The translations under genes and the position numbers were made by a program. This document shows positions 16,361 through 37,322 of a stretch of 64,000 nt of DNA, in pieces. Every line of letters starts with the position of its first letter. Within the stretch, counting starts at the first letter, position 1. This stretch comes from an uncultured Bacilli bacterium (lineage in GTDB: Bacteria > Bacillota_I > Bacilli_A > RF39 > UBA660): the NCBI GenBank assembly GCA_947628535.1, contig CANRAF010000004.1:8566-72565 (forward strand), given 5' to 3'. A model generated the notes under the pieces. The model had not been told where the DNA came from and did not search any database. It saw nothing but the letters and a program-made list of their open reading frames with translations.

Positions 16361-16420
16361 TTTTTATCCCCCTATGTTATTATAGCATTATTTTATTAAA
16401 TAAAAAAGACATGATTCTTA

Positions 16421-17716
16421 TTATTTTTTCATATCTTTTTCGTTTAACTCTTCAAGCTCTTTTATATATTTTTCATAAATATGGCGTCTTCCAATTTGGT
16501 CTGGGGCCTGTGTTAAATCAAAGTTTGGCATACTATTTCCTTCAATTAGTTCAATTTCTCCTTTTTCTGTTATTGCGATATCCCATCCAATATGCCTTAA
16601 CTCTGGAATAAGCCTACCACATTCTTCAATTGCTTTTATGATTTTATCAAAACATGGTACTTGAAAATCTTTAAATTTTACTTTGCTATCAGGGTGAATA
16701 TCAGAGTATCTGTGATACATATCTATAGCATCAGATATTATTTTTCCTGTTTTTGGATCTACTATAGCTCCCATTCCACCACAATGGAAATTATCTACAT
16801 CTTTTCCTTTTCTACCAAGTCTTGCGCATGCAATTAATATTCTTACTTTATCATCTGCACAACGAAGAGAATATACTCTAATAGTATTTAATGTTGTTCT
16901 ATTGAATTTTGCCATATCTTTATGTTGTTTTACTATTTCTTCAACAATAAAATTATGGTCTTTGCAGTATTCATAAAGTTCATTAGTACTATTAAAATTT
17001 TTAGAATCAATAATGCATGCTCCACCCCCCCCAGTACCTTCTATAGGTTTAGCAAAAAATTTAGGGAATTCTTTTACAAACTTACTAAATTCTTCTTGGG
17101 TCGCAGTATTAGCATTTAAAAATTTTCTTTTAACATATTTTTTAAATGTTTTATTAAATTGTTCTTTATCCTTTAATAAATAGATAAATTCTCTATTATT
17201 TGCGGCTTTATATACTTTATATACCCATCCTCTGTTTAAGAACTTTTCTGATTCTTCAAATGTTCTATTGTATAGTTCAAAATCAAAGAAATCATGATAC
17301 CAGTAACCATTTACTTTATAGGTATATAAAAATTTTATTAATAAATCCACCATGTCTTTATTAGTATTTTTAAAAAGATGGACTTGTCTTTTATAAATTT
17401 TTTTAAATCCTCTCATTTCAAATTTTATTTTATCTAAATACTCATTATCTTTAAAAACTATGTGTTTAACGTTTTTCTTTATGTCAGACTTAAACTCTAA
17501 ACTATCTAATATATAAGTCTTGTGAATAGGAATATTTTGTATTTCACGGTATTCCTCAGGAAGTTTTGTTTTAGTTATAAGACATATTTCTCTAACTGTA
17601 AAAAGAGGAACATTTTTATATACATATGTTTTTTTAGGATTAACTTTCTTATATATTTTCTTTAATTTTCTTTTTACTTTTCTCACTATTTTCATTTGAA
17701 ACCACTCCCTAGTCAA
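16421..17716 (-). CDS. ATP-grasp_ST (sugar-transfer-associated ATP-grasp) amidoligase paralogue A (431 aa). Contains an in-frame G8 tract.
   Basis: Family motifs FAKPIEGTGGGGACIID (Gly loop), VEEIVKQHKDMAKFNRTTLNTIRV, RLGRKGKDVDNFHCGGMGAIVDPKTGKI, HPDSKVKFKDFQVPCFDKI and IGWDIAITEKGEIELIEGN. Confidence 0.7.
   Translation of the reverse strand: MTREWFQMKIVRKVKRKLKKIYKKVNPKKTYVYKNVPLFTVREICLITKTKLPEEYREIQNIPIHKTYILDSLEFKSDIKKNVKHIVFKDNEYLDKIKFEMRGFKKIYKRQVHLFKNTNKDMVDLLIKFLYTYKVNGYWYHDFFDFELYNRTFEESEKFLNRGWVYKVYKAANNREFIYLLKDKEQFNKTFKKYVKRKFLNANTATQEEFSKFVKEFPKFFAKPIEGTGGGGACIIDSKNFNSTNELYEYCKDHNFIVEEIVKQHKDMAKFNRTTLNTIRVYSLRCADDKVRILIACARLGRKGKDVDNFHCGGMGAIVDPKTGKIISDAIDMYHRYSDIHPDSKVKFKDFQVPCFDKIIKAIEECGRLIPELRHIGWDIAITEKGEIELIEGNSMPNFDLTQAPDQIGRRHIYEKYIKELEELNEKDMKK
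17035..17042 (-). repeat. Homopolymeric G8 tract (C8 on the plus strand) encoding the Gly-rich loop of ATP-grasp paralogue A.
   Basis: Plus strand tccaCCCCCCCCagt. On the coding strand it reads GGT ACT GGG GGG GGT GGA = G T G G G G. Confidence 0.9.
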
Positions 17717-19240: not shown

Positions 19241-19845
19241 TCTTTATCATCTTCCTTTTGTTTTTTAAAGCTTTCATATTCATCGGGTGTATTATAATCA
19301 ATAGTATTTTTATCTACTATTATAAATTTATCTTTTATTTGTTTTACATCAAATTCAAGGTTTTGAAATGATTGATATATTTGCCAGCCTTTACAGTTTC
19401 TTATTTTGCCTGAATTAAATAAATTTCTTACATTTTCAATGTGTTTTTTAAATAAAGATGAATCTTTTACTTTAATAGCAACAATTGATTTTTCATTTCC
19501 AAAGAATAAAATATCTTCAGGTTCTGTTTCAATTATTCTTTTTATATCTTTATCTGAATAATAAGTATCTCCATAAAGAAAACAAATATTGTTTTCAATA
19601 AGCTCAGCTGTAAATCTATCTAATTCAATTATATTTTGATTTGGTTCATATCTTGTTGCACCTTCAACTTCATATCTTTTGTCATGAGAAGTTATAATTA
19701 TTTCACTATTTTTATCAAACTTTTTAAGTTGTCTTACTATTCTCTCTAAAATAACTTCGCCATTTATTTTCATCAAATGTTTTGGTGTATCTTTATAGTT
19801 GTTCCATCTTTTGCCTTTCCCATCGGCCATTATTATATATTTCAT
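19237..19845 (-). CDS. MobA-like/LicC-like nucleotidyltransferase. Putative phospho-alcohol or sugar cytidylyltransferase.
   Basis: N-terminus MKYIIMADGKGKRW...TPKHLMKINGEVILERIVRQL matches the NTP_transf_3 G-x-G-x-R motif and the following PK(A/H)L motif. Confidence 0.55.
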   Translation of the reverse strand: MKYIIMADGKGKRWNNYKDTPKHLMKINGEVILERIVRQLKKFDKNSEIIITSHDKRYEVEGATRYEPNQNIIELDRFTAELIENNICFLYGDTYYSDKDIKRIIETEPEDILFFGNEKSIVAIKVKDSSLFKKHIENVRNLFNSGKIRNCKGWQIYQSFQNLEFDVKQIKDKFIIVDKNTIDYNTPDEYESFKKQKEDDKE

Positions 19846-19863
19846 AACATCACCTTGATATTT

Positions 19864-20991: not shown

Positions 20992-21041
20992 CTCATTAAC
21001 TATTAATAGTTTAATGCATTATTTTAGTGTTTTAAAATAAG

Positions 21042-22091
21042 TTATTTTATAATTTTTTCTTTTCTGTAAAAATCTCCTAAAACGTTATTTCTTTGCCCTC
21101 CAAAAACTTGGATTATATTTACTCCTGATGAATTATTTGCTTCAATTACATATATATCATCATCAGTTGGTAAAACATCCCAGGCTACAAATTTAAATTC
21201 AGGAAGATTTTCAGCAAGTTTAATCATTTTGTTTTTTATTTGATTCCAGTTTGGAACTTTTACTCCTTCTATTTTTTTATTGGAATCAGGATGTTTTGAA
21301 TATTCTTTTTTATTTTGAATTGATTTTGCTTTACTTAATATTCCTGTTTCTAAATCAATTTTTGCAACTAATCCACCTTTACTTCCATTATCCACTGGGA
21401 TAGTTTTTTTACATCCTATTCGCTGAACTGCAAAAGGTATTTTTATATCACCTTCATCTCTTATGGTTATAATGCGAATTGTATTTGATGCTTTGTTATA
21501 TATATTATCTAAATATTTTGCTTGCCTTATGCAAGTAGAAATAAAGTAATTATCATTTTCACTTAATATTTTTTTTATTTCTACTTCAGCCAACTTTTCA
21601 AAATTAACTGAAAATTCATTATTTGAAAAATCAATTCTGAATACCCCAATTCCTTTTCCTACAGAAATTGGTTTAAAAAATGTGCTCTTTTCTTTTTTTA
21701 ATAAGCTTATTGCTTCATCAATTGTTGTCTCTTTATCGTCTTTATTTCTTATAACACCTTTTTCGCATTTTATTATAGTTTTTGGAGTTTTTATAAATTT
21801 TTCAATCATTTTCTCACAAATTAATTTGTTATTTAACATATATGAATTTGGATAATTTATCTTTCTAGATTTATACCAGTCAAACTCTGATAAATACTCT
21901 TTTTGAGTTTGTTTATTTAAATCATACAATGCAATTTGATCGGCTGTAAAACCTCCATTAAAGGCATAATACAAACGTTTATTAAGTGGTACTTTGAAAT
22001 GTTTCTTAGAAAATAATATTCTTACTATAAAAACAGGGATAAGCCAAAGAAATCTTTTTATTTTAAAAATAATTAATCTTATTTTTTTCAC
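21042..22091 (-). CDS. ATP-grasp_ST amidoligase paralogue B (349 aa).
   Basis: KPISVGKGIGVFRID, NTIRIITIRDEGDIKIPFAVQRIGCKKTIPVDNGSKGGLVAKIDLETG, HPDSNKKIEGVKVPNWNQI, VAWDVLPTDDDIYVIEAN. Confidence 0.65.
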   Translation of the reverse strand: MKKIRLIIFKIKRFLWLIPVFIVRILFSKKHFKVPLNKRLYYAFNGGFTADQIALYDLNKQTQKEYLSEFDWYKSRKINYPNSYMLNNKLICEKMIEKFIKTPKTIIKCEKGVIRNKDDKETTIDEAISLLKKEKSTFFKPISVGKGIGVFRIDFSNNEFSVNFEKLAEVEIKKILSENDNYFISTCIRQAKYLDNIYNKASNTIRIITIRDEGDIKIPFAVQRIGCKKTIPVDNGSKGGLVAKIDLETGILSKAKSIQNKKEYSKHPDSNKKIEGVKVPNWNQIKNKMIKLAENLPEFKFVAWDVLPTDDDIYVIEANNSSGVNIIQVFGGQRNNVLGDFYRKEKIIK

Positions 22092-22100
22092 TGTATCACC

Positions 22101-23285
22101 TTACCATTTTAATATTTTAGCTAGGTGCATTACAATAAATCTAGAATAGTTTGCATTTTTTATTTTTCTTTTTAATCTTCTAAATTTTCTAACTATTATA
22201 TTACTACCTTCGAAAACTAATTTTTCGTCTAATCCATCAAAATGATATTTTTGAATTAAATCATCAAATGAAACTAAATTTTCACATTTTGCTTTTTCTA
22301 TTATTAGATTACTTATAGAAAACTGTCTTCTATATTCTTTTAATCTCGTTCTATTTTCTTTAATTTGTGATAATCTTCCTGCTTCTTTTTTCCATTCTTT
22401 TTTCCAAGTTTTTTTAATATCTTTAAAGTGATTGTTTATTGTCGCTACTTTTATTTTTTCTTCGTCTCGTACTATTTTTATTGGAAGAGAATCAAAAGAA
22501 TAATCATCTTTTGTAAATGTAATACTTAGACACATTCCTTCATCTGTCCCCTTTTGTACACGTTGAAACTCTGTATCAAAAATGAAGTTTCCAAGAGAAT
22601 AAAATACAAGTTTTTTATTTATTCTTTCATATCCTTGTACTGTATGGGTATGATGGGCTACTATTACATCAACTCCCCAGGAAAGAAATTTTTTTATTTT
22701 CTTTTTTGTATATGGCATTGGGCTGTTTAAAAACTCTTCCCCACCATGATATACAAGTAAAACCCAATCGGTTTTTTCTTTTAATTCTTTTATTTTTCTT
22801 TTTAGTATTTTTTTATATTTTTCATGGGCTGGTCCCGGTGTTTCCATAGTTGCACTTACTGCATCTTTATATTGAAATGATAAAACTCCTACTTTAACAT
22901 CTTTACCAAGAATTAGATAATCCGTTGCTTCATCAATGTTTTTTCCAGCACCAATATATTTTACATTAGCTTTTTTAGTGTTTTCTAGGGTATCTAATAT
23001 ACCTCTTTCTCCATAATCTAACATGTGATTATTGGCAAATGAAAGTACTGGATTATTTATATACTTTTTAAGAAAACTTATTGTTTCAATATCACTTTTA
23101 TGGGCAAGAGCAGATTTTTTAGTTTTTGAAAAATCAGTTATTGGAGACTCAAAATTTAAAATATTATAGTCATTGCTATTTAAAAAATCATAGATTTTTC
23201 TATCAATATTTTTAGGATTTTTATACAAGTCTTTGGTAAATTCACTAAAAGCTATATCCCCTGTAAAACCAATTGTTGTTTTCAT
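22101..23285 (-). CDS. CapA/PgsA-family protein (capsule or poly-gamma-glutamate biosynthesis, metallophosphatase fold).
   Basis: N-terminus TIGFTGDIAFSEF, ...LSFANNHMLDYGERG..., HGGEEF, and VIVAHHTHTVQGYE are conserved CapA (PGA_cap) motifs. Confidence 0.8.
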   Translation of the reverse strand: MKTTIGFTGDIAFSEFTKDLYKNPKNIDRKIYDFLNSNDYNILNFESPITDFSKTKKSALAHKSDIETISFLKKYINNPVLSFANNHMLDYGERGILDTLENTKKANVKYIGAGKNIDEATDYLILGKDVKVGVLSFQYKDAVSATMETPGPAHEKYKKILKRKIKELKEKTDWVLLVYHGGEEFLNSPMPYTKKKIKKFLSWGVDVIVAHHTHTVQGYERINKKLVFYSLGNFIFDTEFQRVQKGTDEGMCLSITFTKDDYSFDSLPIKIVRDEEKIKVATINNHFKDIKKTWKKEWKKEAGRLSQIKENRTRLKEYRRQFSISNLIIEKAKCENLVSFDDLIQKYHFDGLDEKLVFEGSNIIVRKFRRLKRKIKNANYSRFIVMHLAKILKW

Positions 23286-24388
23286 TAACTATTCGCCTCC
23301 TCTTCTTCTTTTTGTTTTTCAATTAACTTATACATTTTATCGAAATATGATCTATATCCTTTTTTAGTAAATGTTTGAATAGTTACACATTGTGGTCTTG
23401 CATTTCCTTCTACTAAAACCCAGCCATCATTTGTTAAGGCAAGATCCCAACCAACACAGTGCATTTCAGAAAGCTCTGATGCCAAGCTTTTTACTGTTAC
23501 TAAAAGTTCATTCCATTTTGGAATTTGAAATCCTTTAAAAGTAATATTTGAATCAGGATGTACTTTTTCTTTATCACCTTTCCAGTCGAATCCATCACTT
23601 ATTATTTTTCCTGTTTCACTATCTATTAAGGCTCCAAGTCCTGAAGCACCCATATTATCTACACTACTTCCACCTTGGCCTGTTCTAATAAATGCCCAGA
23701 GAATGGATACATCTTCTTTATACTGAAATGTAACAACTCTGATTGTGTTAACTGAATTTTTATGAAAACAACCTAATTCATTTGATTGTTTAATCAATTC
23801 CTCAGCAACATAAGGAGCTTTTTCGATTGTATAGTTAAATAACTCTTTTTTATTTTTAAAATCTTTTACATTTATAATTTCTATTCCTTCGCCACTATGA
23901 CCTGAAAATGGTTTTAAAATAAATTTATCTTTATCTTTAATAAAATTGTTAAATATTTTTTCTTCTGTTTCATCTTTGATACATATTAAATCTCTTTTAT
24001 AGTATTTTTTAAATACTTTGTATGATAAATTTTTCTTATCTAAAACCTTTCTAAATTTTCTAGTATTAATAACTCTGTAATACTTATTAGTTAATTGTCT
24101 AGTTATATATGTGTCTCTTTTATCATATGGAACCTTTTCAAAATCAAATAAATAATATTCGCCTGCACGCAGAAAATATATATATCTATAAACAATAAGT
24201 TTCATATACATTTTTTTAAATTTTAATTTTTTTATATCTTCTCCTTCAAAGTTATATATTTCTGTTATAGTATCTTCTTTTATATTTTTGTATTTGCCAA
24301 ATATTATAAAACAAACTTTTAAAAATAAATAAATTAGTACAACAGACTTATTGTTTTTTTCATATATTTTTCTTAAAGTATTTCTCAT
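23285..24388 (-). CDS. ATP-grasp_ST amidoligase paralogue C (367 aa).
   Basis: KPFSGHSGEGIEIIN, NTIRVVTFQYKEDVSILWAFIRTGQGGSSVDNMGASGLGALIDSETGKI, HPDSNITFKGFQIPKWNEL, VGWDLALTNDGWVLVEGN. Confidence 0.7.
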   Translation of the reverse strand: MRNTLRKIYEKNNKSVVLIYLFLKVCFIIFGKYKNIKEDTITEIYNFEGEDIKKLKFKKMYMKLIVYRYIYFLRAGEYYLFDFEKVPYDKRDTYITRQLTNKYYRVINTRKFRKVLDKKNLSYKVFKKYYKRDLICIKDETEEKIFNNFIKDKDKFILKPFSGHSGEGIEIINVKDFKNKKELFNYTIEKAPYVAEELIKQSNELGCFHKNSVNTIRVVTFQYKEDVSILWAFIRTGQGGSSVDNMGASGLGALIDSETGKIISDGFDWKGDKEKVHPDSNITFKGFQIPKWNELLVTVKSLASELSEMHCVGWDLALTNDGWVLVEGNARPQCVTIQTFTKKGYRSYFDKMYKLIEKQKEEEEANS

Positions 24389-24471
24389 TTTTTCACTCCT
24401 TTTTAATTTTCTATATAATTATATCATGCATAATATAATTTATAAAGAAAATTAGTTTATAAACACTATAA

Positions 24472-26487
24472 TTATTTAATAGGTTCAAATTTTATTTTTT
24501 TATCTTTCGCATATTTATGCGCATAAGAGTTTTTGTTTCCTTTTATAACTACATTATTACTTTTATAAAAAGCATAATTACTTATTTTTTGTACTGAATC
24601 AGGTATTGTTATTTCTTTTAAATTCTTACATTTTGCAAATGAATATTTTCCTATAGTTAGAAGTCCATCAGGTAATTCAATTTCTTTTAAGTTTTTACAA
24701 GAATAAAATGCTTCTTTTCCAATTGCTTTTAAATTTTTATTAAAGTTTATTTTTTCAATTGTACTACCATAAAAACATCTTTTAAAAATACGAGCCAAAT
24801 CATTATTTAAAGTTATTTCTTTTATTACTTTATTATCTTTAAATATTTCTGCTCCAATTTTTTCTACTGGTAAATTATTTATTTCATTAGGTAGTGTTTC
24901 TTTTTCTTCAATTTGCTTTACTTTAGTTATAGTAATCCAAGTTTTATATTGATTAAATGAGTATTTTTTATCTTTTTTAACTTTATATTCCTTATGAGAT
25001 GTTGCAAGTTGTTCTCCAATAATTGTTCCGAATTGTTTGTCTATAATGGCTGCAAAATTCATACCATGAGATGCTTTAAATAGAATAATGTCATCTTTTT
25101 GCAAGTTTTTATTTAAAGCATTTACCAGTTCCTCTTTATCTTTACAATAGATAGAATTTTTCCTTTTTTTACTATATTCTTCATATGCATATTTCATTTT
25201 TTCTCCATTAAATATGATAAGGTCGATATTATGCTCCAAGAGAAGTTTTCCAACATCACGGTGGATTTGTTCAGAAATATTTCCAAGTTCAAAGATATCT
25301 CCAAGTACTGCTACTCTTCTTGCGCTTTCTTTTATTTCTATTAGCTCAAATGTTTTTAAAATATTTTTAATAGCATCATAAGATGAGTTATAACAATCTG
25401 CTAAAATTTTATATTCACCAACATTTATTAAGTTTTGTCTAACGCCTTTTGTTTTATATTTAGTAATACCTCTTATTATTTTTTCTTCACTAATATTTAA
25501 ATATTTTCCAATTATATAAGCAGTTAAAGCATTTAATATATGATGTTCTCCTATTACTTTTAATTCAACTGGAATTTCTTTGTTTTCAATACTATCTACT
25601 ATAATAAATCTTGTTCCTTTGCTAGTTACTTTAATATATTTAGCATAATAGTCTGCTTTTTTATTATTTAAGGAAAAAGATAGTCTTTTTTGAACAAATT
25701 TATGTTTTCTTAAAATATCATCATCATAATTAATAATTGCAAGTCCATCTTTTTTGCCATAATCTGAAAGAGTAAATTTTTCTTTTGCTATATTTTCTCT
25801 TGACCCATACCATTCAATATGTGAATCTTTTATATTAGTATAAACTGCAATATCAGCTTCGAGAAGAAGCGCAGATCTTTTTACAATATCATAGGCTCCA
25901 TTTCCAGCTCCTGCTTCTTGGAGTAATATTTTGTCATTATAATTTAATTTTTTTACATTTTCAGCAGCTTTGAATGCAGAATTACTATTACCAGCAGATG
26001 CCACCATTTTGTTTTTATATTCTTCTTTTAAGCATGCTTCTATCATATCTTTAGTTGAAGTTTTACCAATAGAACCTGTTACTGCAATTACTTTTGCTTT
26101 TGATTGGTTTCTTATATAGTTTAAAGTTTTTAGTCCTGCGGATACCGGATCTTTACATATTAAACATCTCGCATTTTCTATTTTTTCGGGTGTTACAACA
26201 AACATGGCATTTTTACTAATTTTTTCTTTCATTTTGTCAGTTAAATTAAGATATCTAAATGTATAATAAATACATCCTGGTTTTATATTTTTGTATGATA
26301 TAGTTGGTTCTTTTATTTTTTTTCTTTTTAAAGATTCATATTCTTTTGGCACTTCTATTCCAGTTATTTCAGAAATTTTCTCTAAAGTTAATCTTTTTTT
26401 ATTTGCAAAAATTACTTTAAAAAATAATCTTTCTATTTTTCTATAAATTATTGCCAATTTTCTTATTATTTTTTTCATTTTTTTCAC
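24472..26487 (-). CDS. Mur-ligase-family protein (MurF-like amide ligase) fused to C-terminal BspA-type leucine-rich repeats (LRR_5).
   Basis: Mur ligase P-loop VIAVTGSIGKTSTKDMIEA. MurF-like NIKDSHIEWYGSRENIAKEK. C-terminal 120 aa carry repeats of the pattern IGKEAFYSCKNLKEIELP / IGKYSFAKCKNLKEITIP. The start abuts the xseB stop (RBS GGTGA inside xseB). Confidence 0.7.
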   Translation of the reverse strand: MKKMKKIIRKLAIIYRKIERLFFKVIFANKKRLTLEKISEITGIEVPKEYESLKRKKIKEPTISYKNIKPGCIYYTFRYLNLTDKMKEKISKNAMFVVTPEKIENARCLICKDPVSAGLKTLNYIRNQSKAKVIAVTGSIGKTSTKDMIEACLKEEYKNKMVASAGNSNSAFKAAENVKKLNYNDKILLQEAGAGNGAYDIVKRSALLLEADIAVYTNIKDSHIEWYGSRENIAKEKFTLSDYGKKDGLAIINYDDDILRKHKFVQKRLSFSLNNKKADYYAKYIKVTSKGTRFIIVDSIENKEIPVELKVIGEHHILNALTAYIIGKYLNISEEKIIRGITKYKTKGVRQNLINVGEYKILADCYNSSYDAIKNILKTFELIEIKESARRVAVLGDIFELGNISEQIHRDVGKLLLEHNIDLIIFNGEKMKYAYEEYSKKRKNSIYCKDKEELVNALNKNLQKDDIILFKASHGMNFAAIIDKQFGTIIGEQLATSHKEYKVKKDKKYSFNQYKTWITITKVKQIEEKETLPNEINNLPVEKIGAEIFKDNKVIKEITLNNDLARIFKRCFYGSTIEKINFNKNLKAIGKEAFYSCKNLKEIELPDGLLTIGKYSFAKCKNLKEITIPDSVQKISNYAFYKSNNVVIKGNKNSYAHKYAKDKKIKFEPIK

Positions 26488-28581: not shown

Positions 28582-30168
28582 TTAAACTGTTTTTTCATCT
28601 TCATCAAACCAAATGTATTTATCTATTGTATCTCTTATTCCTTTTCCTTTAGCTATAGCCCAGTAGTATTGCTGTAAAGTTGCATCTCCATCATGATTTC
28701 CTTCAATTAGTTGAACGCTCCCATCTTCGTTTATTACAGCGTCCCAACCAACATATGAAACAGTTTTAACAACTTTTGCAGCCTCTTCAACCATTTTTAA
28801 TACTTTATCCCATGATGGAACTTGAAAGCCTTTAAACTTTACATTTGAAATTGGATGTTTTTCTACAAGCTCTCCAAATTTTGTACTACCATCACCTATT
28901 ATTTTACCAGTTTTAACATCAACTGGAGCAATTACTCCGCCGGCAGACCAATTATCAATAAAGCTTCCTCTTGAGGCGCCGAATCGCACTGTTGCATTTA
29001 TTATATCTACTTTGCCATCCTTATAATATGTATGAATTCTTATAGTGTTTACTGTTTCAGAGTTAAATTTTGCCATATCTTTATGCTGAATTATTATTTG
29101 TTCTACTATTCCCTTTTTATAATGTTTTATCTTTTTATATGTTATATAGTTGATAATTTCATATTTACTGACTTTATATTTTCTTATACCTACACCACAT
29201 GCAGTATCTAGTGGTTTAAATATAAATTCTTTTTCTCCGTTTATTAATTTTTTGTACTCATTATAATTTAATGTTTCTACAGAATACCACTTTCTTTTTA
29301 TCCATTTTTTAAATTTGTTATTAAATAAAATTTTTTTCTTGAAATATTTCCAAGTATCTGCATAATCAGTTGACCTTAAATATAGCTTTCTCCAAACTTC
29401 AGTTGTGATAAATTCTTTTTGTTTTTGAGGATTCATTTTATATAGGTTATATACATCAAATTCATGAAAATTGCTGCCACAATTTATTCTTGATTTTAAT
29501 ATTTCAAGATTAAGTTTAGCTTCGTTCCAATTCATTTCTTCCATTATTCTTCTTCTGTCTTTATCTTCTTGTTCATGAATTATCTTGTTTGCTAAAGGAA
29601 TTCTTTTTGATCTTATTTTTTTGTATTGTTCTATGTTTTTTAATTCTTTAGATGAAAGACTATATTTTCCGCTTACAATAAATTTTAATTCATTATAGTT
29701 TTTTTCTTTAGCAATTTTTAATCGTTCTTCTGCTTCCTCTTTAGAACAATTTGTTTTCTCACTTATGATGTTTATATACCATTTTTTATTTAAATTTCTT
29801 TTTTCAATTGATTTTTTAATAGTTTCTTTAAGTGATTCTTTATCTTTTTCAGTAAGGTCCCATACTTTATATTTATAATATTGCCATAATTTTAAATCAT
29901 ATTTTTTTGCATCATTTAAAATTTGTTTTTCGGATAAACTAGACTCTTTATTTATTTTTTTTATGTACTCTTTTTTCTTTTTTTCATTTTCTCCAATCAT
30001 TTTTAACTTATTTTTATTTAAACAATAGTATTTATACTTTACATAATCATTGATGCTTATTCCACATATTTTGGCATAAATTATTTTACTGGTTGATTTT
30101 ATAACTCCTTCTCCGGTATTTTTCTTAACTTTTCTTATACATCTTATTAGTTGTTTTAATTTTTTCAT
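28582..30168 (-). CDS. Long ATP-grasp_ST amidoligase paralogue P1 (528 aa). N-terminal triple-repeat domain plus C-terminal ATP-grasp.
   Basis: C-terminal motifs KPLDTACGVGIRKYK, NTIRIHTYYKDGKVDIINATVRFGASRGSFIDNWSAGGVIAPVDVKTGKI, HPISNVKFKGFQVPSWDKV, VGWDAVINEDGSVQLIEGN. The N-terminal 250 aa carry three repeats of about 30 aa (AKICGISINDYVKYKYY / AKKYDLKLWQYYKYKVW / AKEKNYNELKFIVSGKY). Confidence 0.7.
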   Translation of the reverse strand: MKKLKQLIRCIRKVKKNTGEGVIKSTSKIIYAKICGISINDYVKYKYYCLNKNKLKMIGENEKKKKEYIKKINKESSLSEKQILNDAKKYDLKLWQYYKYKVWDLTEKDKESLKETIKKSIEKRNLNKKWYINIISEKTNCSKEEAEERLKIAKEKNYNELKFIVSGKYSLSSKELKNIEQYKKIRSKRIPLANKIIHEQEDKDRRRIMEEMNWNEAKLNLEILKSRINCGSNFHEFDVYNLYKMNPQKQKEFITTEVWRKLYLRSTDYADTWKYFKKKILFNNKFKKWIKRKWYSVETLNYNEYKKLINGEKEFIFKPLDTACGVGIRKYKVSKYEIINYITYKKIKHYKKGIVEQIIIQHKDMAKFNSETVNTIRIHTYYKDGKVDIINATVRFGASRGSFIDNWSAGGVIAPVDVKTGKIIGDGSTKFGELVEKHPISNVKFKGFQVPSWDKVLKMVEEAAKVVKTVSYVGWDAVINEDGSVQLIEGNHDGDATLQQYYWAIAKGKGIRDTIDKYIWFDEDEKTV

Positions 30169-30181
30169 TATATACTTCCTT

Positions 30182-31756
30182 TCACTTGATATATGGCTTT
30201 ATTATATTTAAAATTCCTTTTTCTTCTGTGATTCCATAAATAGATTGGAATACACGCATTGCATGATTATGGTTTCCTTCGATTAATTCGATTTTGTTAT
30301 CATTAGTAATAGCGATATCCCATCCAACATATACTACATCTTCAATTTTTTTTGCTACCTCATTTATTGTTTTTATTACTTTATCCCAATTAGGTATTTG
30401 GAAACCTTTAAATTTTATATTTGAGATTGGATGAGTTTTATAAATATTTCCTTTTTTATCTGCACCATCAGTATCAATTTTACCTGTTTTAGTGTTGATG
30501 CCCGCGATTATTCCGCCTGCCGACCAGTTATCATAATTATTTTTTACACCTGTCCTAAAAACAGCTGCTAATATATTTACTTTCCCGTCAACTTTAATTG
30601 TTGCTATACGAATAGAATTACATGATTCTTCATGAAACTTTGCAGTGTCTTTATGTTGAATTATAAATTCTTCAATTAATCCGGGTCCGCTTTGCATTAT
30701 ACATTCGTAAACATTTCTATTTTTCTTTTCGTTTTCGTTTACCTTAAATTTTTGAAAACCCTTGCCTTCCTGCATATCTAATGGCTTATAGGCAATTAAA
30801 TTTAATCCTTTTATATTTTTTTCGAAATCTTCAAATGTTAGATTTTCTGTTAAAAACCATTTTCTATTTATCCATTTTTTAAAGGTTTTATTAAATAAAG
30901 ATTTGTCTTTAAAATATTTATACTTTTCTTTTGGAACCCAATACTTTATTTTCATTTTAAAATGATTATCTTCTGTCATGAATTTACGTTGTTCTTCTTT
31001 TGATTTATTATATAGTTTATAAAGATAATATTCATCTCCATTACAACCACAATTTATTCTGGCATTAATATAGTTTATACGATATCTTCCAATACTAATC
31101 CCCATTTCATTAGAAGCTTTTAATCTTTGATTTTGTTTTTCTTTTTGTTTTTCTTCAAAACTTTTTTCTTCCTCTTTTGAAAGAATTGGATTCTCTTTTT
31201 CTTTTAAATTTTCTAAGTCTTTTTTACTTAATAAATATAAATCTTCTGTTATGAATTTTTTGTATGAATATCCTTTTTTTCTAGCAATATCCATTCTTTC
31301 TATTGCTTCTTGCTCCTTTAAATTAGTTTTTTCCATTACAACTTTTGCATACCATAATTTGTTCTTTTCATTTTTTTCTTGTAACTTATCAAGTGCTTGT
31401 TTGTATTCCTTTAACTCCTCTAGTGTGAATTCCCACATCCTGTCTTTTATAAACATTTTATAAGTTATTCCAAGTTTTTGAGAAGTTTTAACTAGCTTTA
31501 TTGCTTCGCTTTTACTAACCCCCCCCCCAGCATATTTTTGGGTCTTTTTTATTGCTTCTTTTTTTAGTTTTAGTATTTCTCCAAGTTCAATCAATTCTTC
31601 TTTTTTCTTTTTATAACTTTTATTTTTTGCATAATCATTTAGACTTATTCCATATTTATGTGCCTTTATTAGCCTTTTTATTATTTTAAAACTATTCCAT
31701 CCTGTTTCTCGTTTTATCTTATTAAAGTTTTTTATCTTTTTCTTCATGTTTTTCAT
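30182..31756 (-). CDS. Long ATP-grasp_ST amidoligase paralogue P2 (524 aa). Contains an in-frame G10 tract.
   Basis: KPLDMQEGKGFQKFK, NSIRIATIKVDGKVNILAAVFRTGVKNNYDNWSAGGIIAGINTKTGKI, HPISNIKFKGFQIPNWDKV, VGWDIAITNDNKIELIEGN. N-terminal repeats AHKYGISLNDYAKNKSY / SQKLGITYKMFIKDRMW / ARKKGYSYKKFITEDLY. Confidence 0.7.
   Translation of the reverse strand: MKNMKKKIKNFNKIKRETGWNSFKIIKRLIKAHKYGISLNDYAKNKSYKKKKEELIELGEILKLKKEAIKKTQKYAGGGVSKSEAIKLVKTSQKLGITYKMFIKDRMWEFTLEELKEYKQALDKLQEKNEKNKLWYAKVVMEKTNLKEQEAIERMDIARKKGYSYKKFITEDLYLLSKKDLENLKEKENPILSKEEEKSFEEKQKEKQNQRLKASNEMGISIGRYRINYINARINCGCNGDEYYLYKLYNKSKEEQRKFMTEDNHFKMKIKYWVPKEKYKYFKDKSLFNKTFKKWINRKWFLTENLTFEDFEKNIKGLNLIAYKPLDMQEGKGFQKFKVNENEKKNRNVYECIMQSGPGLIEEFIIQHKDTAKFHEESCNSIRIATIKVDGKVNILAAVFRTGVKNNYDNWSAGGIIAGINTKTGKIDTDGADKKGNIYKTHPISNIKFKGFQIPNWDKVIKTINEVAKKIEDVVYVGWDIAITNDNKIELIEGNHNHAMRVFQSIYGITEEKGILNIIKPYIK
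31480..31640. repeat. Near-identical DNA segment of about 160 bp shared with 34780..34940 (paralogues P2 and P4).
   Basis: By eye the two stretches are almost identical, for example ...cttttactaaCCCCCCCCCCagcatatttttggg(t/c)ttttttattgcttctttttttagttttagtatttctccaagttcaatcaattctt... Confidence 0.7.
31519..31528 (-). repeat. Homopolymeric G10 tract (C10 on the plus strand) within paralogue P2 (codons about 76-79, ...KYAGGGVSKS...).
   Basis: Plus strand ctaaCCCCCCCCCCagc. The coding strand reads GCT GGG GGG GGG GTT = A G G G V. Confidence 0.9.
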
Positions 31757-31817
31757 ATCAAAATCTCTCCTTAATTATGTCTATATTTTAATTACAAATA
31801 TATTTTCTATATTAAGT

Positions 31818-33371
31818 CTATTTATCATTAAGATATTTTTCTACTAATGGCCTAACGCCTTTGTTTTCTATTACAGCATATGGATACTGAAATATTCTAA
31901 TTCCAGGATTATGATTTCCTTCAATTAATTCAATTTCACCATTTTTAGTTATTGCTATATCCCATCCTATATATGGCATTTTCGGCACTTCTTTTGATGC
32001 GTCTTTTAATTTTTTTATTATTTCATTCCATTTTGGAATTTGAAATCCTTTTATTTTTGTATTAGTATCTGGATGTAGCTCATAAATGTTCCCTTTTTTG
32101 TCTACTGCATCTGTTATAACGATTCCTGTTTTAGGATTAATTGATGCTACAAGACCTCCGGCAGTAAAATTATCTATGGTTTTTGTTTTATTACATCCCA
32201 TGCGAAGGGCTGCCATAATAATTTCAAATTTTCCATTTCTAATTATAGTCATAATTCTTATTGTATTTAAAGAGCCTGGATATATTTTACCTATATTTTC
32301 ATCTTGCTCTATAACTTCTTCTATTATATAATCTTTATTTTTAATTTTTTTATATGTAAAATAATCGCTAAAAATATTTCTATTTACTTTGTATATATTT
32401 ATTCCACTTCCACCATAATCATATAATGGTTTTACAATTATTTTATTAAGATTAGAAATTTTTTCTTTAAAATCATAATAATCTTCAAAATCTGATGCAA
32501 TAAACCATTTTCTATGTAAATAATTTTTAAATTTTTCATTGAATAGTGCTTTACTATCAAAAAATTTATAATTTCCTCCATAATCACAGTATTTTATACT
32601 CATTTTTAAACAAACTTCATTAGTCATAAATTCTTTTTGCTTATCCATATCATACTTGTATAACATTAATTGATAATAATCATTTAATTTCGCTTGGGAA
32701 ATTGCTCTTGATTTTAAAAATTCTATTTTAAATCTTGGCTCTGACCAATTCATTTCCTTTCTAATTTTTTGTTCATATTCTTTATTTTCTTTTTTTATCT
32801 GCTTAACATTTTTTTTCTTAAATACTGGTTTTGGATAAACTTTAATTTCTTCAACAGTTAATTTTTCTAATCCATTTAACATAAAATTAACTGTTGAATA
32901 TCCTCTTTCTCTAGCAATATTTAGTTTTTCAAGTACTTCATCTTTAGATTGGCCTGTTTTATCCATTGCTACTTTTATATACCATTCTTTGTCTTCTTTT
33001 GTTTTTTTATGTTTCTTGTTTAGTGCTTCACCATATTCAACTAGTTCATCTAAAGAAAAATTCCACATCTTGCCAAGTGTATACATTTTGTATGTTATTC
33101 CATATGATTGCGCTACATTCAATCGTTCCTTTCCCTCTTTTTTAGATAATTTTTGTTTCTTTATTGTTTTATTAAGGGCATTCTTTTTATATTTTAATGT
33201 TTTGCTAAGTTTTTTTAATTCTTTTATTGTCATATTATAACATCGATTTTTTATATATGGAGTCATAGTAATTCCATACATTTTAGCCATCATCAATTTT
33301 TTTATTATTTTAATATTGCTCCATTTTGTTGCTCTTTTTATTACCCTTAAATTTTTTCTAATTCGTTTCAT
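31818..33371 (-). CDS. Long ATP-grasp_ST amidoligase paralogue P3 (517 aa).
   Basis: KPLYDYGGSGINIYK, NTIRIMTIIRNGKFEIIMAALRMGCNKTKTIDNFTAGGLVASINPKTGIV, HPDTNTKIKGFQIPKWNEI, IGWDIAITKNGEIELIEGN. N-terminal repeats AKMYGITMTPYIKNRCY / AQSYGITYKMYTLGKMW / ARERGYSTVNFMLNGL. Confidence 0.7.
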   Translation of the reverse strand: MKRIRKNLRVIKRATKWSNIKIIKKLMMAKMYGITMTPYIKNRCYNMTIKELKKLSKTLKYKKNALNKTIKKQKLSKKEGKERLNVAQSYGITYKMYTLGKMWNFSLDELVEYGEALNKKHKKTKEDKEWYIKVAMDKTGQSKDEVLEKLNIARERGYSTVNFMLNGLEKLTVEEIKVYPKPVFKKKNVKQIKKENKEYEQKIRKEMNWSEPRFKIEFLKSRAISQAKLNDYYQLMLYKYDMDKQKEFMTNEVCLKMSIKYCDYGGNYKFFDSKALFNEKFKNYLHRKWFIASDFEDYYDFKEKISNLNKIIVKPLYDYGGSGINIYKVNRNIFSDYFTYKKIKNKDYIIEEVIEQDENIGKIYPGSLNTIRIMTIIRNGKFEIIMAALRMGCNKTKTIDNFTAGGLVASINPKTGIVITDAVDKKGNIYELHPDTNTKIKGFQIPKWNEIIKKLKDASKEVPKMPYIGWDIAITKNGEIELIEGNHNPGIRIFQYPYAVIENKGVRPLVEKYLNDK

Positions 33372-33486
33372 TTTTTACTCCTTAATTATTTTCACTATAT
33401 TCATTATAATTAGTTTTAAAAATATAGTCAAATAAAAAACATAGCATTTATCTCACAAAATATATGTATTACTATGTTTTTTTGTT

Positions 33487-35049
33487 TTATTTTAAATAGG
33501 GTTTTATGACATTACCTATACCTTTATCTTCTAAAAGAGCATACGCTGATTGAAAAACGCAGACATCATGATCATGATTTCCTTCAATTAGCTCAATATC
33601 GCCATTTTTGGTAATTGCAACATCCCAACCAATATATGGCATATTTTCTACAACAGTAGATGCTTCTTTTAATACTTTTACTATCTCTTTCCACTTAGAT
33701 ATTTGCTCGCCTTTAAATTTTTGATTTGTTATAGGGTGTTTTTTGTAGATATGTCCTTTTTTATCTGAAGCATCAGATATTATTTTTCCTGTTTTTGGAT
33801 CTATTATAGTTATTATTCCTCCAGTTGACCAATTATCATATTCATTATTTACTCCAATTCTAAGAACAGATCCAAGAATTGTAAATTTTCCATCTATATT
33901 CATAGTAGCAATTCTTAAAGTATTACAGGATTTATTATTAAATTTAGCAGTGTCTTTATGTTGAATTATAAACTCTTCAACAATTCCATTTGGTTGTTTT
34001 TTTATGTAATTATAAACTCTTTTATTTTGTTTTTTACTTTCATTTACTTCAAATTTTTTAAATCCTTTCCCCTGAAGACTACTAATTGGTTTATAAGCAA
34101 TTAAATTTAATCCCTTTATATTTTTTTCGAAATTTTCAAATGATAAATTTTCAGTTACAAACCATTTTCTTTTTACCCATTTCTCAAATGTCTTATTAAA
34201 CAATTCTTTATTTTTAAAATAAATATAATTTTTTTGATAATCACAATATGTAAATATCATTCTCCAATGCTTGTCTACAGTTATATAATTCCTTTGTTGT
34301 TTTTCGCTTTTATTATATAGTTTATATACTAAAAATTCTCGTTCACAACAACCACAGTTAAGCTTTGCCTTTTCACATTCAATTCTGTATCTGCTGTTAG
34401 TCCAGTTCATCTCTTCCATTACTTTTTTCTTATCTTGATTTATTCTTTTTCTTAGCTGCTTATTTTTTTTCTTATCAGTTTTTGATTTTGTATTGTCTTT
34501 TTTATTTAAACAATCTATTTCATTATTTGATAAAAGATACATATTTCGTATTATTATATCAGAATACGAATATCCTTTACTTGATAGTTTATTTATTGCT
34601 TCTAAAGCTTCTTCATTAGTAAGTTTAGATTTTTCACTAATTAATTTTACATAATATTCTTTTCTCTCTTTATAATTTATCTTTTTTAAATCTAATATTT
34701 CTTTATACTCTTTTAATTCTTCTTTAGTAAATTCAAAGCATTTATTATTTAAATATTTTTTATATGTTATACCAAGTTTCTGGGCAGTTTTAACTATTTC
34801 TATTGCTTTGCTTTTACTAACCCCCCCCCCAGCATATTTTTGGGCTTTTTTTATTGCTTCTTTTTTTAGTTTTAGTATTTCTCCAAGTTCAATCAATTCT
34901 TTATTTTTCTTTTTATAACCCTTGTTTTTTATATAATCGTCTAAATTTATTCCGTATTCTCTTGCTCTTACTAATCTTTTTATTATCTTTATATTATTCC
35001 ATTTTGTTTGTTTTTTTAGCTCTTTTAGATTTTCTGATGTCCTTCTCAT
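33487..35049 (-). CDS. Long ATP-grasp_ST amidoligase paralogue P4 (520 aa). Contains an in-frame G10 tract. Closest paralogue of P2.
   Basis: KPISSLQGKGFKKFE, NTLRIATMNIDGKFTILGSVLRIGVNNEYDNWSTGGIITIIDPKTGKI, HPITNQKFKGEQISKWKEI, IGWDVAITKNGDIELIEGN. N-terminal repeats AREYGINLDDYIKNKGY / AQKLGITYKKYLNNKCF / SSKGYSYSDIIIRNMY. Confidence 0.7.
   Translation of the reverse strand: MRRTSENLKELKKQTKWNNIKIIKRLVRAREYGINLDDYIKNKGYKKKNKELIELGEILKLKKEAIKKAQKYAGGGVSKSKAIEIVKTAQKLGITYKKYLNNKCFEFTKEELKEYKEILDLKKINYKERKEYYVKLISEKSKLTNEEALEAINKLSSKGYSYSDIIIRNMYLLSNNEIDCLNKKDNTKSKTDKKKNKQLRKRINQDKKKVMEEMNWTNSRYRIECEKAKLNCGCCEREFLVYKLYNKSEKQQRNYITVDKHWRMIFTYCDYQKNYIYFKNKELFNKTFEKWVKRKWFVTENLSFENFEKNIKGLNLIAYKPISSLQGKGFKKFEVNESKKQNKRVYNYIKKQPNGIVEEFIIQHKDTAKFNNKSCNTLRIATMNIDGKFTILGSVLRIGVNNEYDNWSTGGIITIIDPKTGKIISDASDKKGHIYKKHPITNQKFKGEQISKWKEIVKVLKEASTVVENMPYIGWDVAITKNGDIELIEGNHDHDVCVFQSAYALLEDKGIGNVIKPYLK
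34780..34940. repeat. Near-identical DNA segment of about 160 bp shared with 31480..31640 (paralogues P4 and P2).
   Basis: See the partner repeat. It includes the poly-G tract and encodes ELIELGEILKLKKEAIKK(A/T)QKYAGGGVSKS...QKLGITYK. Confidence 0.7.
34821..34830 (-). repeat. Homopolymeric G10 tract (C10 on the plus strand) within paralogue P4 (...KYAGGGVSKS...).
   Basis: Plus strand ctaaCCCCCCCCCCagc. Same codon context as the P2 tract. Confidence 0.9.
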
Positions 35050-35121
35050 TTATATTCACTCCTTAACTATTTTCACTTTACATCTATTATAGTTTTTTCT
35101 ACAAATATAGTCAAATTGCTC

Positions 35122-35150
35122 CATAAAAAAATTATGCTTTTTAGCATAAC
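35122..35150 (-). terminator. Rho-independent terminator after the ttcA-like gene.
   Basis: Minus strand reads UUAUGCU-AAAAA-AGCAUAA followed by UUUUUUU. Confidence 0.5.
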
Positions 35151-35151
35151 T

Positions 35152-35946
35152 TTAATATTTATCTAAAAATGTATATGTTTTATTTTCGTCTTTGTATCCA
35201 AGTACTTGTTGAAGTATTACATTTTCACTACTTTTCATTATATGAATATCTATGTTTTTATCAATTTTTCTTAAAGATTCTATTAATTCTTTTATCTCTT
35301 TTCTTTTTCCTTCTTCTTTTTTTGTAACTGTACAGGCACAATCTAAAAATGATAAGTTACAGTAGTTTTTAAAGGCAATTATATCTTTTTCTTTTACAAA
35401 ATAAAGTGGTCTTATAAGTTCCATGTTATGAAAGTTAACACTTTTTAATTTTGGCATCATTGTTTTATATTCACCAGTATAAAATATATTTAGTAGAATT
35501 GTTTCTATTACATCATCAAAGTGATGTCCAAGGGCAATCTTATTACATCCAAGTTCTTGGGCTTTTGCATATAAAGATCCTCTTCTTTTTCTGGCACATA
35601 AATAACACATTGATTTTTGATTTTCTATTTCTTTAAAAATATTACTTTCATATATTGTTGCATTTATATTTAATTTTTTTAAATTTTCTTTTATTTTTTC
35701 TAGATTTTCTTTTTTATACCCTGGATCCATTACTATAAATTTTAAACTGAATTTAAATTTGCTATGTTTTTCTAATTCCTGCATACATTTTGCTAAGATG
35801 AATGAATCTTTTCCCCCAGAGATACAAACTGCTATTTTATCTCCATCTTCTACTAAAGAATATTCTTTAACTGCCCTTAAAAACTTGGAATATATTTTTC
35901 TTTTAAATGTTTTAATTAGACATCTTTCAATTTCATTTGCTTCCAC
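35152..35946 (-). CDS. ttcA: TtcA-family PP-loop ATPase (tRNA 2-thiocytidine synthase-like tRNA thiolation enzyme).
   Basis: PP-loop CISGGKDS. Conserved cysteine pairs (CYLC ... CACT). 264 aa. Confidence 0.7.
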   Translation of the reverse strand: MEANEIERCLIKTFKRKIYSKFLRAVKEYSLVEDGDKIAVCISGGKDSFILAKCMQELEKHSKFKFSLKFIVMDPGYKKENLEKIKENLKKLNINATIYESNIFKEIENQKSMCYLCARKRRGSLYAKAQELGCNKIALGHHFDDVIETILLNIFYTGEYKTMMPKLKSVNFHNMELIRPLYFVKEKDIIAFKNYCNLSFLDCACTVTKKEEGKRKEIKELIESLRKIDKNIDIHIMKSSENVILQQVLGYKDENKTYTFLDKY

Positions 35947-35999
35947 TTATACCACCTTGTTTTATTATACTATTTTTAAAAGTAAAAACAAGATTTAAA

Positions 36000-37322
36000 T
36001 TAATCTCGTTTCAGATCTTCGACTATCTTTTCAATACTTTTTGTGGTCTGCTCTCCAGTTTCCATATTTTTTATAGTTACCTCATTTTGCTTCTCTTCAT
36101 TTTCTCCGATTATACATACATAAGGTATTTTTGCTCTATTAGCATATTTTAATTTTGATTTAAAACTTTTGTCTTCAAGGAAAGTATCAGTATTTATTTC
36201 ATTTTCTCTTAAAATTTTAGCAACTTTTAAAGAATATGGAATATTTTCAATACTAAATGGAACTACTAAAACTTTAGTTAATGTTTTTACTTTAGAATTT
36301 ATTATTCCTGCTTCTTTTAGTTTATAAAATAATCTGGTAATTCCTATTGAAATACCTATACCACTTAAATTTTCATCAAGATAGTATTTGGTTAAATTAT
36401 CATATCTTCCTCCAGAACAAATACTTCCAAGTTCTGGATAATCATCAAGTACTGTTTCGTATACTGTTCCTGTATAATAATCAAGTCCACGTGCTATAGT
36501 TAAATCAATTTTATAAAAAGTGTTATCACTGTTAAATTTTCCAATATTACTTATTACATATTCAAGTTCATTTACTCCACTATTAAAATTTTCATTTTCT
36601 ATATTTAGTTTCTTTAGCTTTGATATTATTTCTTCGTTTGTTCCAGTAATAGTAATGAAGTTTAATATTTCTTCTATTTTTTCGTTATCGATATTAATTT
36701 TTCTTAACTCTTCTATTATTTTTTCTTTTCCTATTTTTTCAAGTTTATCAATTATTCTTAAAATATCACTTGTTTTATCAGAAATAGAAAGTTCATTAAA
36801 AAATCCTAAGAGAATTTTTCTATTATTTATTTTTATTGTAAATTTACCAAAGTTTAACTTTTTAAATATTTCATAGATAATTGAAGGAACTTCTACATCA
36901 TAATTTAAACTTAAATTTTCATCTATAACATCTATGTCACATTGATAAAACTCTCTATACCTTCCCTTTTGAGGCCTTTCACCGCGATATACTTTTCCTA
37001 TTTGATATCTTTTAAATGGGAATGCTAAATTATAATAATTTTTAGATACATATCTTGCAAATGGAACAGTCAAATCAAATCTTAAAGATATATCGTTTTC
37101 ACCTTTTTTAAATCTATATATTTGTTTTTCAGTTTCACCTTTAGCTTTCGCCAAGAGAATAGATGAATACTCAAGTAATGGTGTATCAATTGGTAAAAAT
37201 CCGAAACTTTCATAAGTTTTTCTAATTGTATCAATCATTTCATTAAATAATATTTGGTCTTCTGGGAGAAGTTCCATAAAACCTGGCATTATTTTTGGAG
37301 TTATTTTATCCATTGTAATCAC
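36000..37322 (-). CDS. hisS: Histidine--tRNA ligase.
   Basis: Class II aaRS with HisRS motifs (...RFDLTVPFARYV..., YRGERPQKGRYREFYQCD) and a C-terminal anticodon-binding domain. 440 aa. Confidence 0.85.
   Translation of the reverse strand: MITMDKITPKIMPGFMELLPEDQILFNEMIDTIRKTYESFGFLPIDTPLLEYSSILLAKAKGETEKQIYRFKKGENDISLRFDLTVPFARYVSKNYYNLAFPFKRYQIGKVYRGERPQKGRYREFYQCDIDVIDENLSLNYDVEVPSIIYEIFKKLNFGKFTIKINNRKILLGFFNELSISDKTSDILRIIDKLEKIGKEKIIEELRKINIDNEKIEEILNFITITGTNEEIISKLKKLNIENENFNSGVNELEYVISNIGKFNSDNTFYKIDLTIARGLDYYTGTVYETVLDDYPELGSICSGGRYDNLTKYYLDENLSGIGISIGITRLFYKLKEAGIINSKVKTLTKVLVVPFSIENIPYSLKVAKILRENEINTDTFLEDKSFKSKLKYANRAKIPYVCIIGENEEKQNEVTIKNMETGEQTTKSIEKIVEDLKRD

Follow-up and report, generated by a model that had tools for sequence, protein, structure and literature searches.

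How did two genes of one tandem array come to carry the same run of ten G residues within their coding sequences, and does this run act as a genetic switch? The question is raised by a metagenome-derived contig, of which a stretch of 64 kb (hereafter the window) was analyzed. Four tandem paralogues, designated P1 to P4, are located at positions 28582–35049, and the G10 tract is present in P2 and P4 (Table 1). The host genome features a GC content of approx. 25% and encodes SpoIVB and SpoIIM, and its HisS has its best named relative, at 69% identity, in a ‘Bacilli bacterium’ metagenome-assembled genome; the host was therefore placed among the uncultured spore-forming Bacilli. Based on sequence comparison within the window and on screening of further assemblies and protein collections, the locus is interpreted, with moderate confidence, as a probable poly-G phase-variation switch that was homogenized between P2 and P4.

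Table 1. Genes, tracts, block copies and promoter-like sites of the locus, and contigs carrying tract variants. Positions refer to the window.
Feature	Position	Strand	Description
P4	33487..35049	-	ORF, 520 aa; PF14397, E=9e-42
P3	31818..33371	-	Divergent 517-aa paralogue between P4 and P2, without tract
P2	30182..31756	-	524-aa paralogue; ORF, Pfam
P1	28582..30168	-	528-aa paralogue without tract
G10 tract of P4	34821..34830	-	C10 on the + strand; codons 74-77, GGG GGG GGG G
G10 tract of P2	31519..31528	-	C10 on the + strand; codons 77-80
Third long G run (G8)	17025..17032	-	ACT GGG GGG GGT GGA; KP..G.G.G loop
P4 copy of the 119-bp high-identity block	34801..34919	-	Maximal-scoring segment vs P2
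P2 copy of the 119-bp high-identity block	31499..31617	-	Maximal-scoring segment vs P4
Promoter-like site upstream of P4	35086..35114	-	TTGACT-17-TATAAT; putative, consensus match only
Promoter-like site upstream of P3	33403..33431	-	TTGACT-17-TATAAT; putative, consensus match only
Contig L058 (ENA ERZ27249519)	34264-36013		1748 bp; 99.9%; G9 in P4
Contig L059 (ENA ERZ27249541)	30435-31981		1585 bp; 99.8%; G9 in P2

The paralogue array and the high-identity block of P2 and P4

Within the array, the start of P1 follows the stop of P2 after 13 bp, and the promoter-like site of P4 is located inside a 38-nt motif common to the regions upstream of P4 and P3. An Rfam scan of the 64-kb window returned nothing. 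P1 is the orthologue of the ‘b’ gene in related metagenome-assembled genomes (MAGs), and P2 and P4 together correspond, as co-orthologues, to the one ‘a’ gene in the a–b pairs found there. Over the whole gene, P2 and P4 are mutual closest relatives, sharing 55% amino acid identity with each other and 49–51% with the orthologues. Lineage-specific duplication of one ATP-grasp carboxylate-amine ligase gene is the best explanation for this pair. At the nucleotide level, P2 and P4 are 68% identical in a codon-aware alignment.

An earlier note had claimed a nearly identical block of about 160 bp around the tract. Divergence between the two genes is indeed not uniform, and 60-nt windows across coding nucleotides 121–300 show P2/P4 identities of 88–97%. 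The length and the degree of identity, however, had to be corrected: the claimed range, 34780–34940 vs 31478–31638 (offset 3302), contains 17 mismatches in 161 bp (89.4% identity), and the near-identical core comprises 119 bp. Within this core, 114 of 119 bases are identical (95.8%, compared with about 66% outside the block), with uninterrupted identity over stretches of 55 and 35 bp, and its score was not reached when the match vector was shuffled 20000 times. Third codon positions match in 38 of 40 cases against a background of 56% (0/20000 permutations). Likewise, pS amounts to 0–0.07 in codons 51–80 and to 0.4–0.9 almost everywhere else in the comparison of P2 with P4. Identity falls off gradually at both edges of the block.

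Since synonymous sites are homogenized only inside the block, protein constraint does not explain it. An exchange between P2 and P4 by ectopic gene conversion is the most economical explanation and, as judged from the DNA alignment, is well supported, in agreement with the segmental exchange suggested beforehand. This call rests on the contrast in identity and not on tree conflict, because P2 and P4, as sister paralogues, are already each other's closest relatives and no topological conflict can occur.

Among the other paralogue pairs of P1–P4, no comparable block was found, with best segments of at most 23 nt. Two further P2/P4 segments were marginal, namely alignment nucleotides 920–965 (44 of 46 identical; 3/2000 permutations) and 1082–1115 (33 of 34 identical; 12/2000 permutations), and both coincide with conserved peptide motifs. 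Similarly, short patches shared between the gene at about 16421–17716 and P3 or P4 are located within conserved motifs. The block as such occurs in the window in two copies only, in P2 and in P4, which is why neither a dispersed repeat nor a mobile element was accepted as its interpretation. On the antisense strand, a small CCC...GGG hairpin followed by a T-run was scored as terminator-like in both copies; it was taken as a by-product of CCC...GGG together with the T-rich complement.

The block had also been proposed as a substrate for recombination that would delete or duplicate the intervening 3.3 kb, an idea for which no support was obtained. Neither loss of P3 nor a P2/P4 chimera was detected in the four contigs L052, L056, L059 and L060, originating from four samples, which are colinear with the window across the P4–P3–P2–P1 junctions. 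The block represents a weak recombination substrate, since its longest perfect identity spans only 55 bp.

The poly-G tracts and their length variants

The C10 run in P4 and the KYAGGGVSKS segment shared with P2 are exactly as described in the earlier note. At both tracts the coding strand reads GCT GGG GGG GGG GTT, within the peptide ...QKYAGGGVSKS.... Such runs are exceptional for the window, in which G/C runs of 5, 6, 8 and 10 nucleotides were counted eight times, once, once and twice, respectively. An i.i.d. model predicts 0.0003 G/C runs of at least 10 nucleotides per 64 kb, and GGG is the rarest Gly codon (7–8% of Gly codons). Only three G/C runs of at least 8 nucleotides are present in the 64 kb, each of them inside an ATPgrasp_ST gene. 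The third one, G8, lies in a Gly-rich loop encoded by the ATPgrasp_ST gene at 16421–17695, which belongs to a teichoic-acid-like locus.

The tract, the two extra codons and the corresponding Gly residues are missing from P1, from P3 and from the ‘a’ orthologues of related MAGs; at the tract position, the orthologues L053a and L054a read K-NGKLS and K-NTSLS, respectively. Accordingly, the protein sequence does not need the G run, and the tract represents a derived insertion confined to P2 and P4. The P4 model (AF2, pLDDT 94) comprises an N-terminal part of approx. 270 amino acids consisting of four tandem three-helix repeats. The GGG residues encoded by the tract occupy the end of the long helix and the loop that connects repeat 1 to repeat 2, and the other three repeats feature no insertion at the corresponding point.

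Changes in tract length are predicted to alter the products. With G10, proteins of 520 (P4) and 524 (P2) amino acids are predicted, compared to 82 and 85 amino acids with G9, and 77 and 80 amino acids with G11. In general, G8, G9, G11 and G12 variants are predicted to run into a stop within 1–6 codons, leaving a stub of 76–86 amino acids. When the N-terminal 140 residues of P4 were used as query, two short proteins equalling the predicted G9 products were retrieved. P0332 (82 aa) consists of the P4 N-terminus followed by ...GGGLVKAKQ and a stop, and P0333 (85 aa) of the P2 N-terminus followed by the tail of P0332. Predicted G8, G11 and G12 products were absent from the protein collection, so that −1 variants only were observed; the predicted G7 and G9 products of the third, G8-carrying gene were likewise absent from it.

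At the nucleotide level, G9 alleles of both tracts were found on contigs nearly identical to the window, namely L058 for P4 and L059 for P2, with the predicted truncations. These findings favour the contingency-tract reading of the earlier note, at a contig coverage of only 2.3–2.6x. G10 is kept in P2 on L052 (99.4% identity) and L056 (100%); hence the P2 tract was recorded as G10 in three of four observations (window, L052 and L056 vs G9 in L059). Overall, the tract differs in two of four independent G10 observations, compared with none of 55 A/T runs of 7–8 nucleotides in 13.9 kb compared. Contig L058 additionally lacks 1 bp in the sequence for the conserved PP-loop of a ttcA-like gene, which looks like an error. 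Because of the 2–3x coverage and this indel, PCR or sequencing slippage at G10 is a possible source of the differences. The G9/G10 variation is regarded as probably biological.

Further differences in the related contigs are clustered in the genes of the array. In L052, a net insertion of 17 bp splits P2, and 33 bp are deleted in frame in the P3 linker. In L060, P4 carries a TGG to TGA nonsense change and an in-frame insertion of 21 bp. If real, these changes in P2, P3 and P4 would fit dispensable, often inactivated genes; if artefactual, they would stress the low quality of these assemblies.

Frameshifting at a G run was also encountered outside the closely related contigs. In L021, a distant Bacteroidales MAG, a G9 run marks the exact point at which an ATPgrasp_ST gene is split, and homology resumes in another frame past this run, which is located in the same Gly-rich loop as the G8 run of the window. 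The G-run observations in L021, L019 and L013 originate from a profile scan of genome contigs with the P1–P4 alignment, in which the matches listed were distant ATPgrasp_ST loci only, with at most 34% identity. In JGI metagenomes, a pattern scan for the tract with its flanks gave 0 matches, and a protein-guided scan gave one locus, which is distant.

The proposed switch and its alternatives

According to the proposed mechanism, the G10 run would go back to an insertion of two codons at about codon 75, where the protein forms a loop between helical repeats of its N-terminus, and this run would operate as a slipped-strand switch: in the G10 state the gene would be ON and the full enzyme of 520 or 524 amino acids would be synthesized, and gain or loss of one G would turn it OFF, with a stub of 77–86 amino acids as product. 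The segment of approx. 120 bp carrying the run was most likely copied between P2 and P4 by ectopic gene conversion, and both genes therefore hold the same tract, which would be switchable independently in each of them. Differences between G9 and G10 are presumed to arise in vivo at high and reversible rates. It is tentatively considered, with more doubt than conviction, that the block of approx. 120 bp represents a portable switch cassette, with conversion installing the poly-G tract into successive paralogues. This idea would extend to a seven-member family of ATP-grasp ligases, three members of which already possess long G runs.

Gene conversion may, on the other hand, have taken place in the absence of an adaptive switch. 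The G10 run would then be a tolerated loop insertion, and the G9 alleles would reflect slippage during sequencing, PCR or assembly of the 2–3x contigs, or occasional deleterious mutations. The low coverage of the G9 contigs, the probably erroneous 1-bp indel elsewhere in L058 and the restriction of both variants to −1 changes are compatible with this explanation; moreover, the tract resides in an interhelix loop corresponding to a gap in P1 and P3, and is therefore structurally tolerated. However, a tolerated insertion does not readily account for a G10 run that consists of the least used Gly codon and has such a low expectation, nor for the restriction of all three long G runs to one enzyme family and the recurrence of a G-run frameshift in the distant ATPgrasp_ST gene of L021. 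Furthermore, half of the tract observations differ but none of the A/T runs of 7–8 nucleotides does, and the run is positioned early in the gene, where slippage leads to a clean null. Taken together, conversion without a switch is regarded as unlikely, though it is the most probable of the alternatives.

Two other explanations address the block itself. Preservation since the duplication by constraint at the nucleotide level, i.e., a function of the block DNA or RNA, for instance as an internal regulatory element, an RNA structure or a protein-binding site, would also produce identity at synonymous sites, and the terminator-like antisense hairpin with its T-run, present in both copies, could be cited in its favour. 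It is nonetheless very improbable: the sense-strand RNA in the region of the tract folded no better than shuffled sequences (z = +0.9 and +2.6), P1, P3 and the orthologues do without the block, none occurs elsewhere in the window, and the gradual decay of identity at both edges corresponds to the expectation for conversion tracts. Least credible of all is an assembly artefact, in which collapse or chimeric joining of P2 reads would have generated the similarity and the tract of P4. The metagenomic origin of the contig and the perfect run of 55 bp, which is in the range of de Bruijn tangles, speak for this possibility; yet the two copies differ at five block positions and possess distinct flanks on both sides, the P2 copy recurs in L052, L056 and L059, which are independent assemblies, and the P4 copy was reproduced in L058 with its own flanks and block SNPs. 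An artefactual origin of block and tract is thus largely refuted. A phase-variation switch shared by P2 and P4 through conversion remains the preferred reading, at the moderate confidence given above.

Predicted function and comparison with known systems

All four proteins combine a helical N-terminus of four repeats with a C-terminal domain of PF14397 (ATPgrasp_ST, ‘sugar-transfer associated ATP-grasp’), with E-values of 1e-42 to 1e-51 and 143–175 bits at a cut-off of 31.4. Apart from a weak GSH-S_ATP match, PF14397 was the only family assigned to P1–P4 in the Pfam scan. The C-terminal half of P4 matched the ATP-grasp amino-acid ligases LysX/ArgX, RimK, Ddl and PsnB with a Foldseek probability of 1.0. 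In the literature search, no biochemical literature on PF14397/ATPgrasp_ST was found. Three further ATPgrasp_ST genes scoring above the gathering threshold are encoded at 15254–26487, 2 kb from P1. The same region encodes a TagF-like glycerophosphotransferase, a TagG/H-like ABC transporter, an acyltransferase, a CapA-like protein and a MurF-like–LRR fusion. Furthermore, long-form paralogues are encoded inside a similar teichoic-acid-like locus of a relative (L055). Based on the Tag-like genes in the neighbourhood and on the relative's locus, P2 and P4 most likely decorate a wall teichoic-acid-like or other surface polymer.

If the switch is real, stochastic heterogeneity is to be expected in a Gram-positive wall polymer, and P2/P4 would provide a concrete case of a switch spreading between paralogues via a very short conversion tract; the homogenized segment comprises essentially the switch and its immediate flanks. 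For MAG annotation, such genes bear the risk of being mislabelled as pseudogenes or split ORFs, as is already the case in the ENA assemblies found. Should the block indeed act as a portable cassette, combinatorial and stochastic decoration of the wall polymer with amino acids would be expected in this spore-forming Bacilli commensal, possibly serving as defence against phage or antibody. The locus would then represent a Gram-positive, teichoic-acid counterpart of the Campylobacter flagellin/capsule phasome.

Homopolymer contingency loci are textbook knowledge for Campylobacter, Helicobacter, Neisseria and Haemophilus. To our knowledge, they are poorly documented in uncultured low-GC Firmicutes/Bacilli, and we know of no description for PF14397 ligases. 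Within the class Bacilli, the swrA gene of B. subtilis, reportedly studied by Kearns and colleagues, is said to carry a frameshift switch in a poly-A run (A8/A9) of its coding region. Switches of this kind therefore do function in the class, here in a host whose mismatch repair is intact. It resembles P2/P4 in class and in being a homopolymer frameshift within a coding region, but swrA is a single-copy swarming regulator with a poly-A run and shows no paralogue conversion.

Repeats in combination with conversion between paralogues are known for surface-related genes, such as opa and pilE/pilS of Neisseria. For babA/babB and homA/homB of H. pylori, frame switching at simple sequence repeats (SSRs) and gene conversion between paralogues were described (PMC5483490, PMC3960876, PMC2795765). 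The H. pylori bab/hom and Neisseria opa/pil genes encode outer-membrane adhesins or pilins and contain CT dinucleotide or CTCTT pentamer repeats, whereas P2 and P4 are cytoplasmic ligases with G runs. Moreover, conversion tracts in H. pylori and Neisseria are usually longer and generate antigenic chimeras, unlike the block described here. P1–P4 are homologous to none of maf, bab, hom, opa and pil, as deduced from their exclusive assignment to PF14397.

The closest known analogue of the predicted P2/P4 switch is maf1/maf4 with the poly-G phasome of Campylobacter. Poly-G phasomes of this genus include paralogous maf genes, and the core phasome lists a C. fetus ATP-grasp protein with a G(9-10) tract (PMC6321876). 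In C. jejuni NCTC 11168, maf1 and maf4 share an identical sequence, and each of them is phase-variable (PMC13130089, PMC6321876). Common to both systems are a low-GC genome, several tract-bearing paralogues per locus, and homogenized paralogues with independent tracts. In addition, the maf genes feature intragenic G runs of approx. 8–11 nucleotides mediating translational ON/OFF control of surface-decorating enzymes, a behaviour that is predicted for P2 and P4. The analogy is functional only, since the families are unrelated: P1–P4 belong to PF14397 and showed no homology to Maf. Further differences concern the extent of homogenization, which is limited to approx. 120 bp including the tract, in contrast to the entire gene in maf1/maf4, and the target, which is probably a teichoic-acid-like polymer and not the flagellin glycan. 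Finally, the host of P2/P4 belongs to the Gram-positive spore-forming Bacilli. While the homopolymer contingency mechanism is classical, the novelty in comparison with these systems lies in the uncultured Gram-positive spore-forming host, in the enzyme family and in how short the homogenized segment is.

Variation among the P1-P4 paralogues

Among the tandem ATPgrasp_ST paralogues P1-P4, variation was recorded for P2, P3 and P4 in contigs colinear with the window. L052 (ENA ERZ27249519) represents a strain that shares 99.4% identity with the window. Here, P2 is split into 174 + 307 aa by a net 17-bp insertion (versus window ~31283-31290), and the Lys-rich linker of P3 has lost 33 bp, in frame, from a stretch flanked by short direct repeats (versus window ~32766-32798). 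The low-coverage contig L060 (ENA ERZ27249283; 2.2x) features a nonsense change (TGG to TGA) and a 21-bp in-frame insertion in P4 as well as AAGGAA instead of AAGGAG at the P3 ribosome-binding site.

Regarding the reliability of the 2-3x contigs, a gauge is provided by L058, in which a 1-bp deletion (G5A4 to G5A3, versus window ~35809) falls in the conserved SGGKDS PP-loop codons of the ttcA-like gene 35152-35946; it probably represents an assembly or sequencing error. Furthermore, the opening 55 bases of contig L056 (1-55) correspond to window 33827-33881 in inverted orientation, adjacent to the contig's own end, and are most likely a hairpin-type assembly artefact.

Alignment of P2 and P4 also revealed two further patches of high identity, namely nt 920-965 (window ~30792-30837 / 34094-34139; 44/46 identical; 3/2000 permutations) and nt 1082-1115 (window ~30642-30675 / 33944-33977; 33/34 identical; 12/2000 permutations). 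Both coincide with conserved peptide motifs, FEKNIKGLNLIAYKP and EEFIIQHKDTAKF, and could reflect either constraint or older micro-conversions.

Putative transcript layout and neighbouring genes

The motif found upstream of P3 and P4 includes a sigma-70-like TTGACT-17-TATAAT element (11/12 consensus match). Since P2 and P1 lack this motif and are preceded by gaps of 61 bp and 13 bp, respectively, P3-P2-P1 may form a single transcript. If these genes are co-transcribed, a frameshift in P2 could have a polar effect on P1. At the edge of the teichoic-acid-like locus, the fusion of a MurF-like Mur ligase to a leucine-rich-repeat region is an uncommon arrangement; further ATP-grasp ligases and a gene of the CapA-like (PGA_cap) type lie beside it.

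Features located in the window and in related contigs
Feature	Position	Strand	Remarks
38-nt motif, two copies	window 33396-33433 and 35079-35116		upstream of P3 and P4; 79% identical between copies
Third long G run, G8 (ACT GGG GGG GGT GGA)	window 17025-17032	minus	in ATPgrasp_ST gene 16421-17695
MurF-like Mur ligase fused to BspA-type leucine-rich-repeat region	window 24472-26487		edge of teichoic-acid-like locus
L060 differences (P4 nonsense, P4 insertion, P3 ribosome-binding site)	window 34177, ~33673 and 33378		2.2x coverage
Short ORF with G10 run at codons 8-11	L053:20287-20356		contig end; MAG GCA_030525225.1

G runs in ATPgrasp_ST genes and related lineages

Besides the tracts of P2 and P4, the G8 run lies within the Gly-rich KP..G.G.G loop of an ATPgrasp_ST gene adjoining a TagGH-like transporter. 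In paralogues, this loop is encoded by GGT, GGA or GGC codons with interspersed residues. A ±1 change at G8 would cut the product to 229-253 aa, and the run may constitute a third switch.

In the related MAG L053, the short ORF reads ATG AAA ACC GAA AGA ATG TTC G10 TT ATT TAA. With G10, a stop codon directly follows the run, whereas G9 or G11 leaves the frame open as far as the contig end; another 5'-proximal switch may be present in this related lineage.

Moreover, a Bacteroidales MAG (SFCY01000125.1; L021:161-1022) contains an ATPgrasp_ST homologue whose break coincides exactly with a run of G9 (458-466), with homology in frame 2 upstream and frame 3 downstream. In-frame runs occur within the ATPgrasp_ST ORFs of Prevotella (G9, L019:2378-2386) and Phocaeicola (G8, L013:7948-7955). 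Together, these three cases suggest that G runs are recurrent in the ATPgrasp_ST family across phyla.
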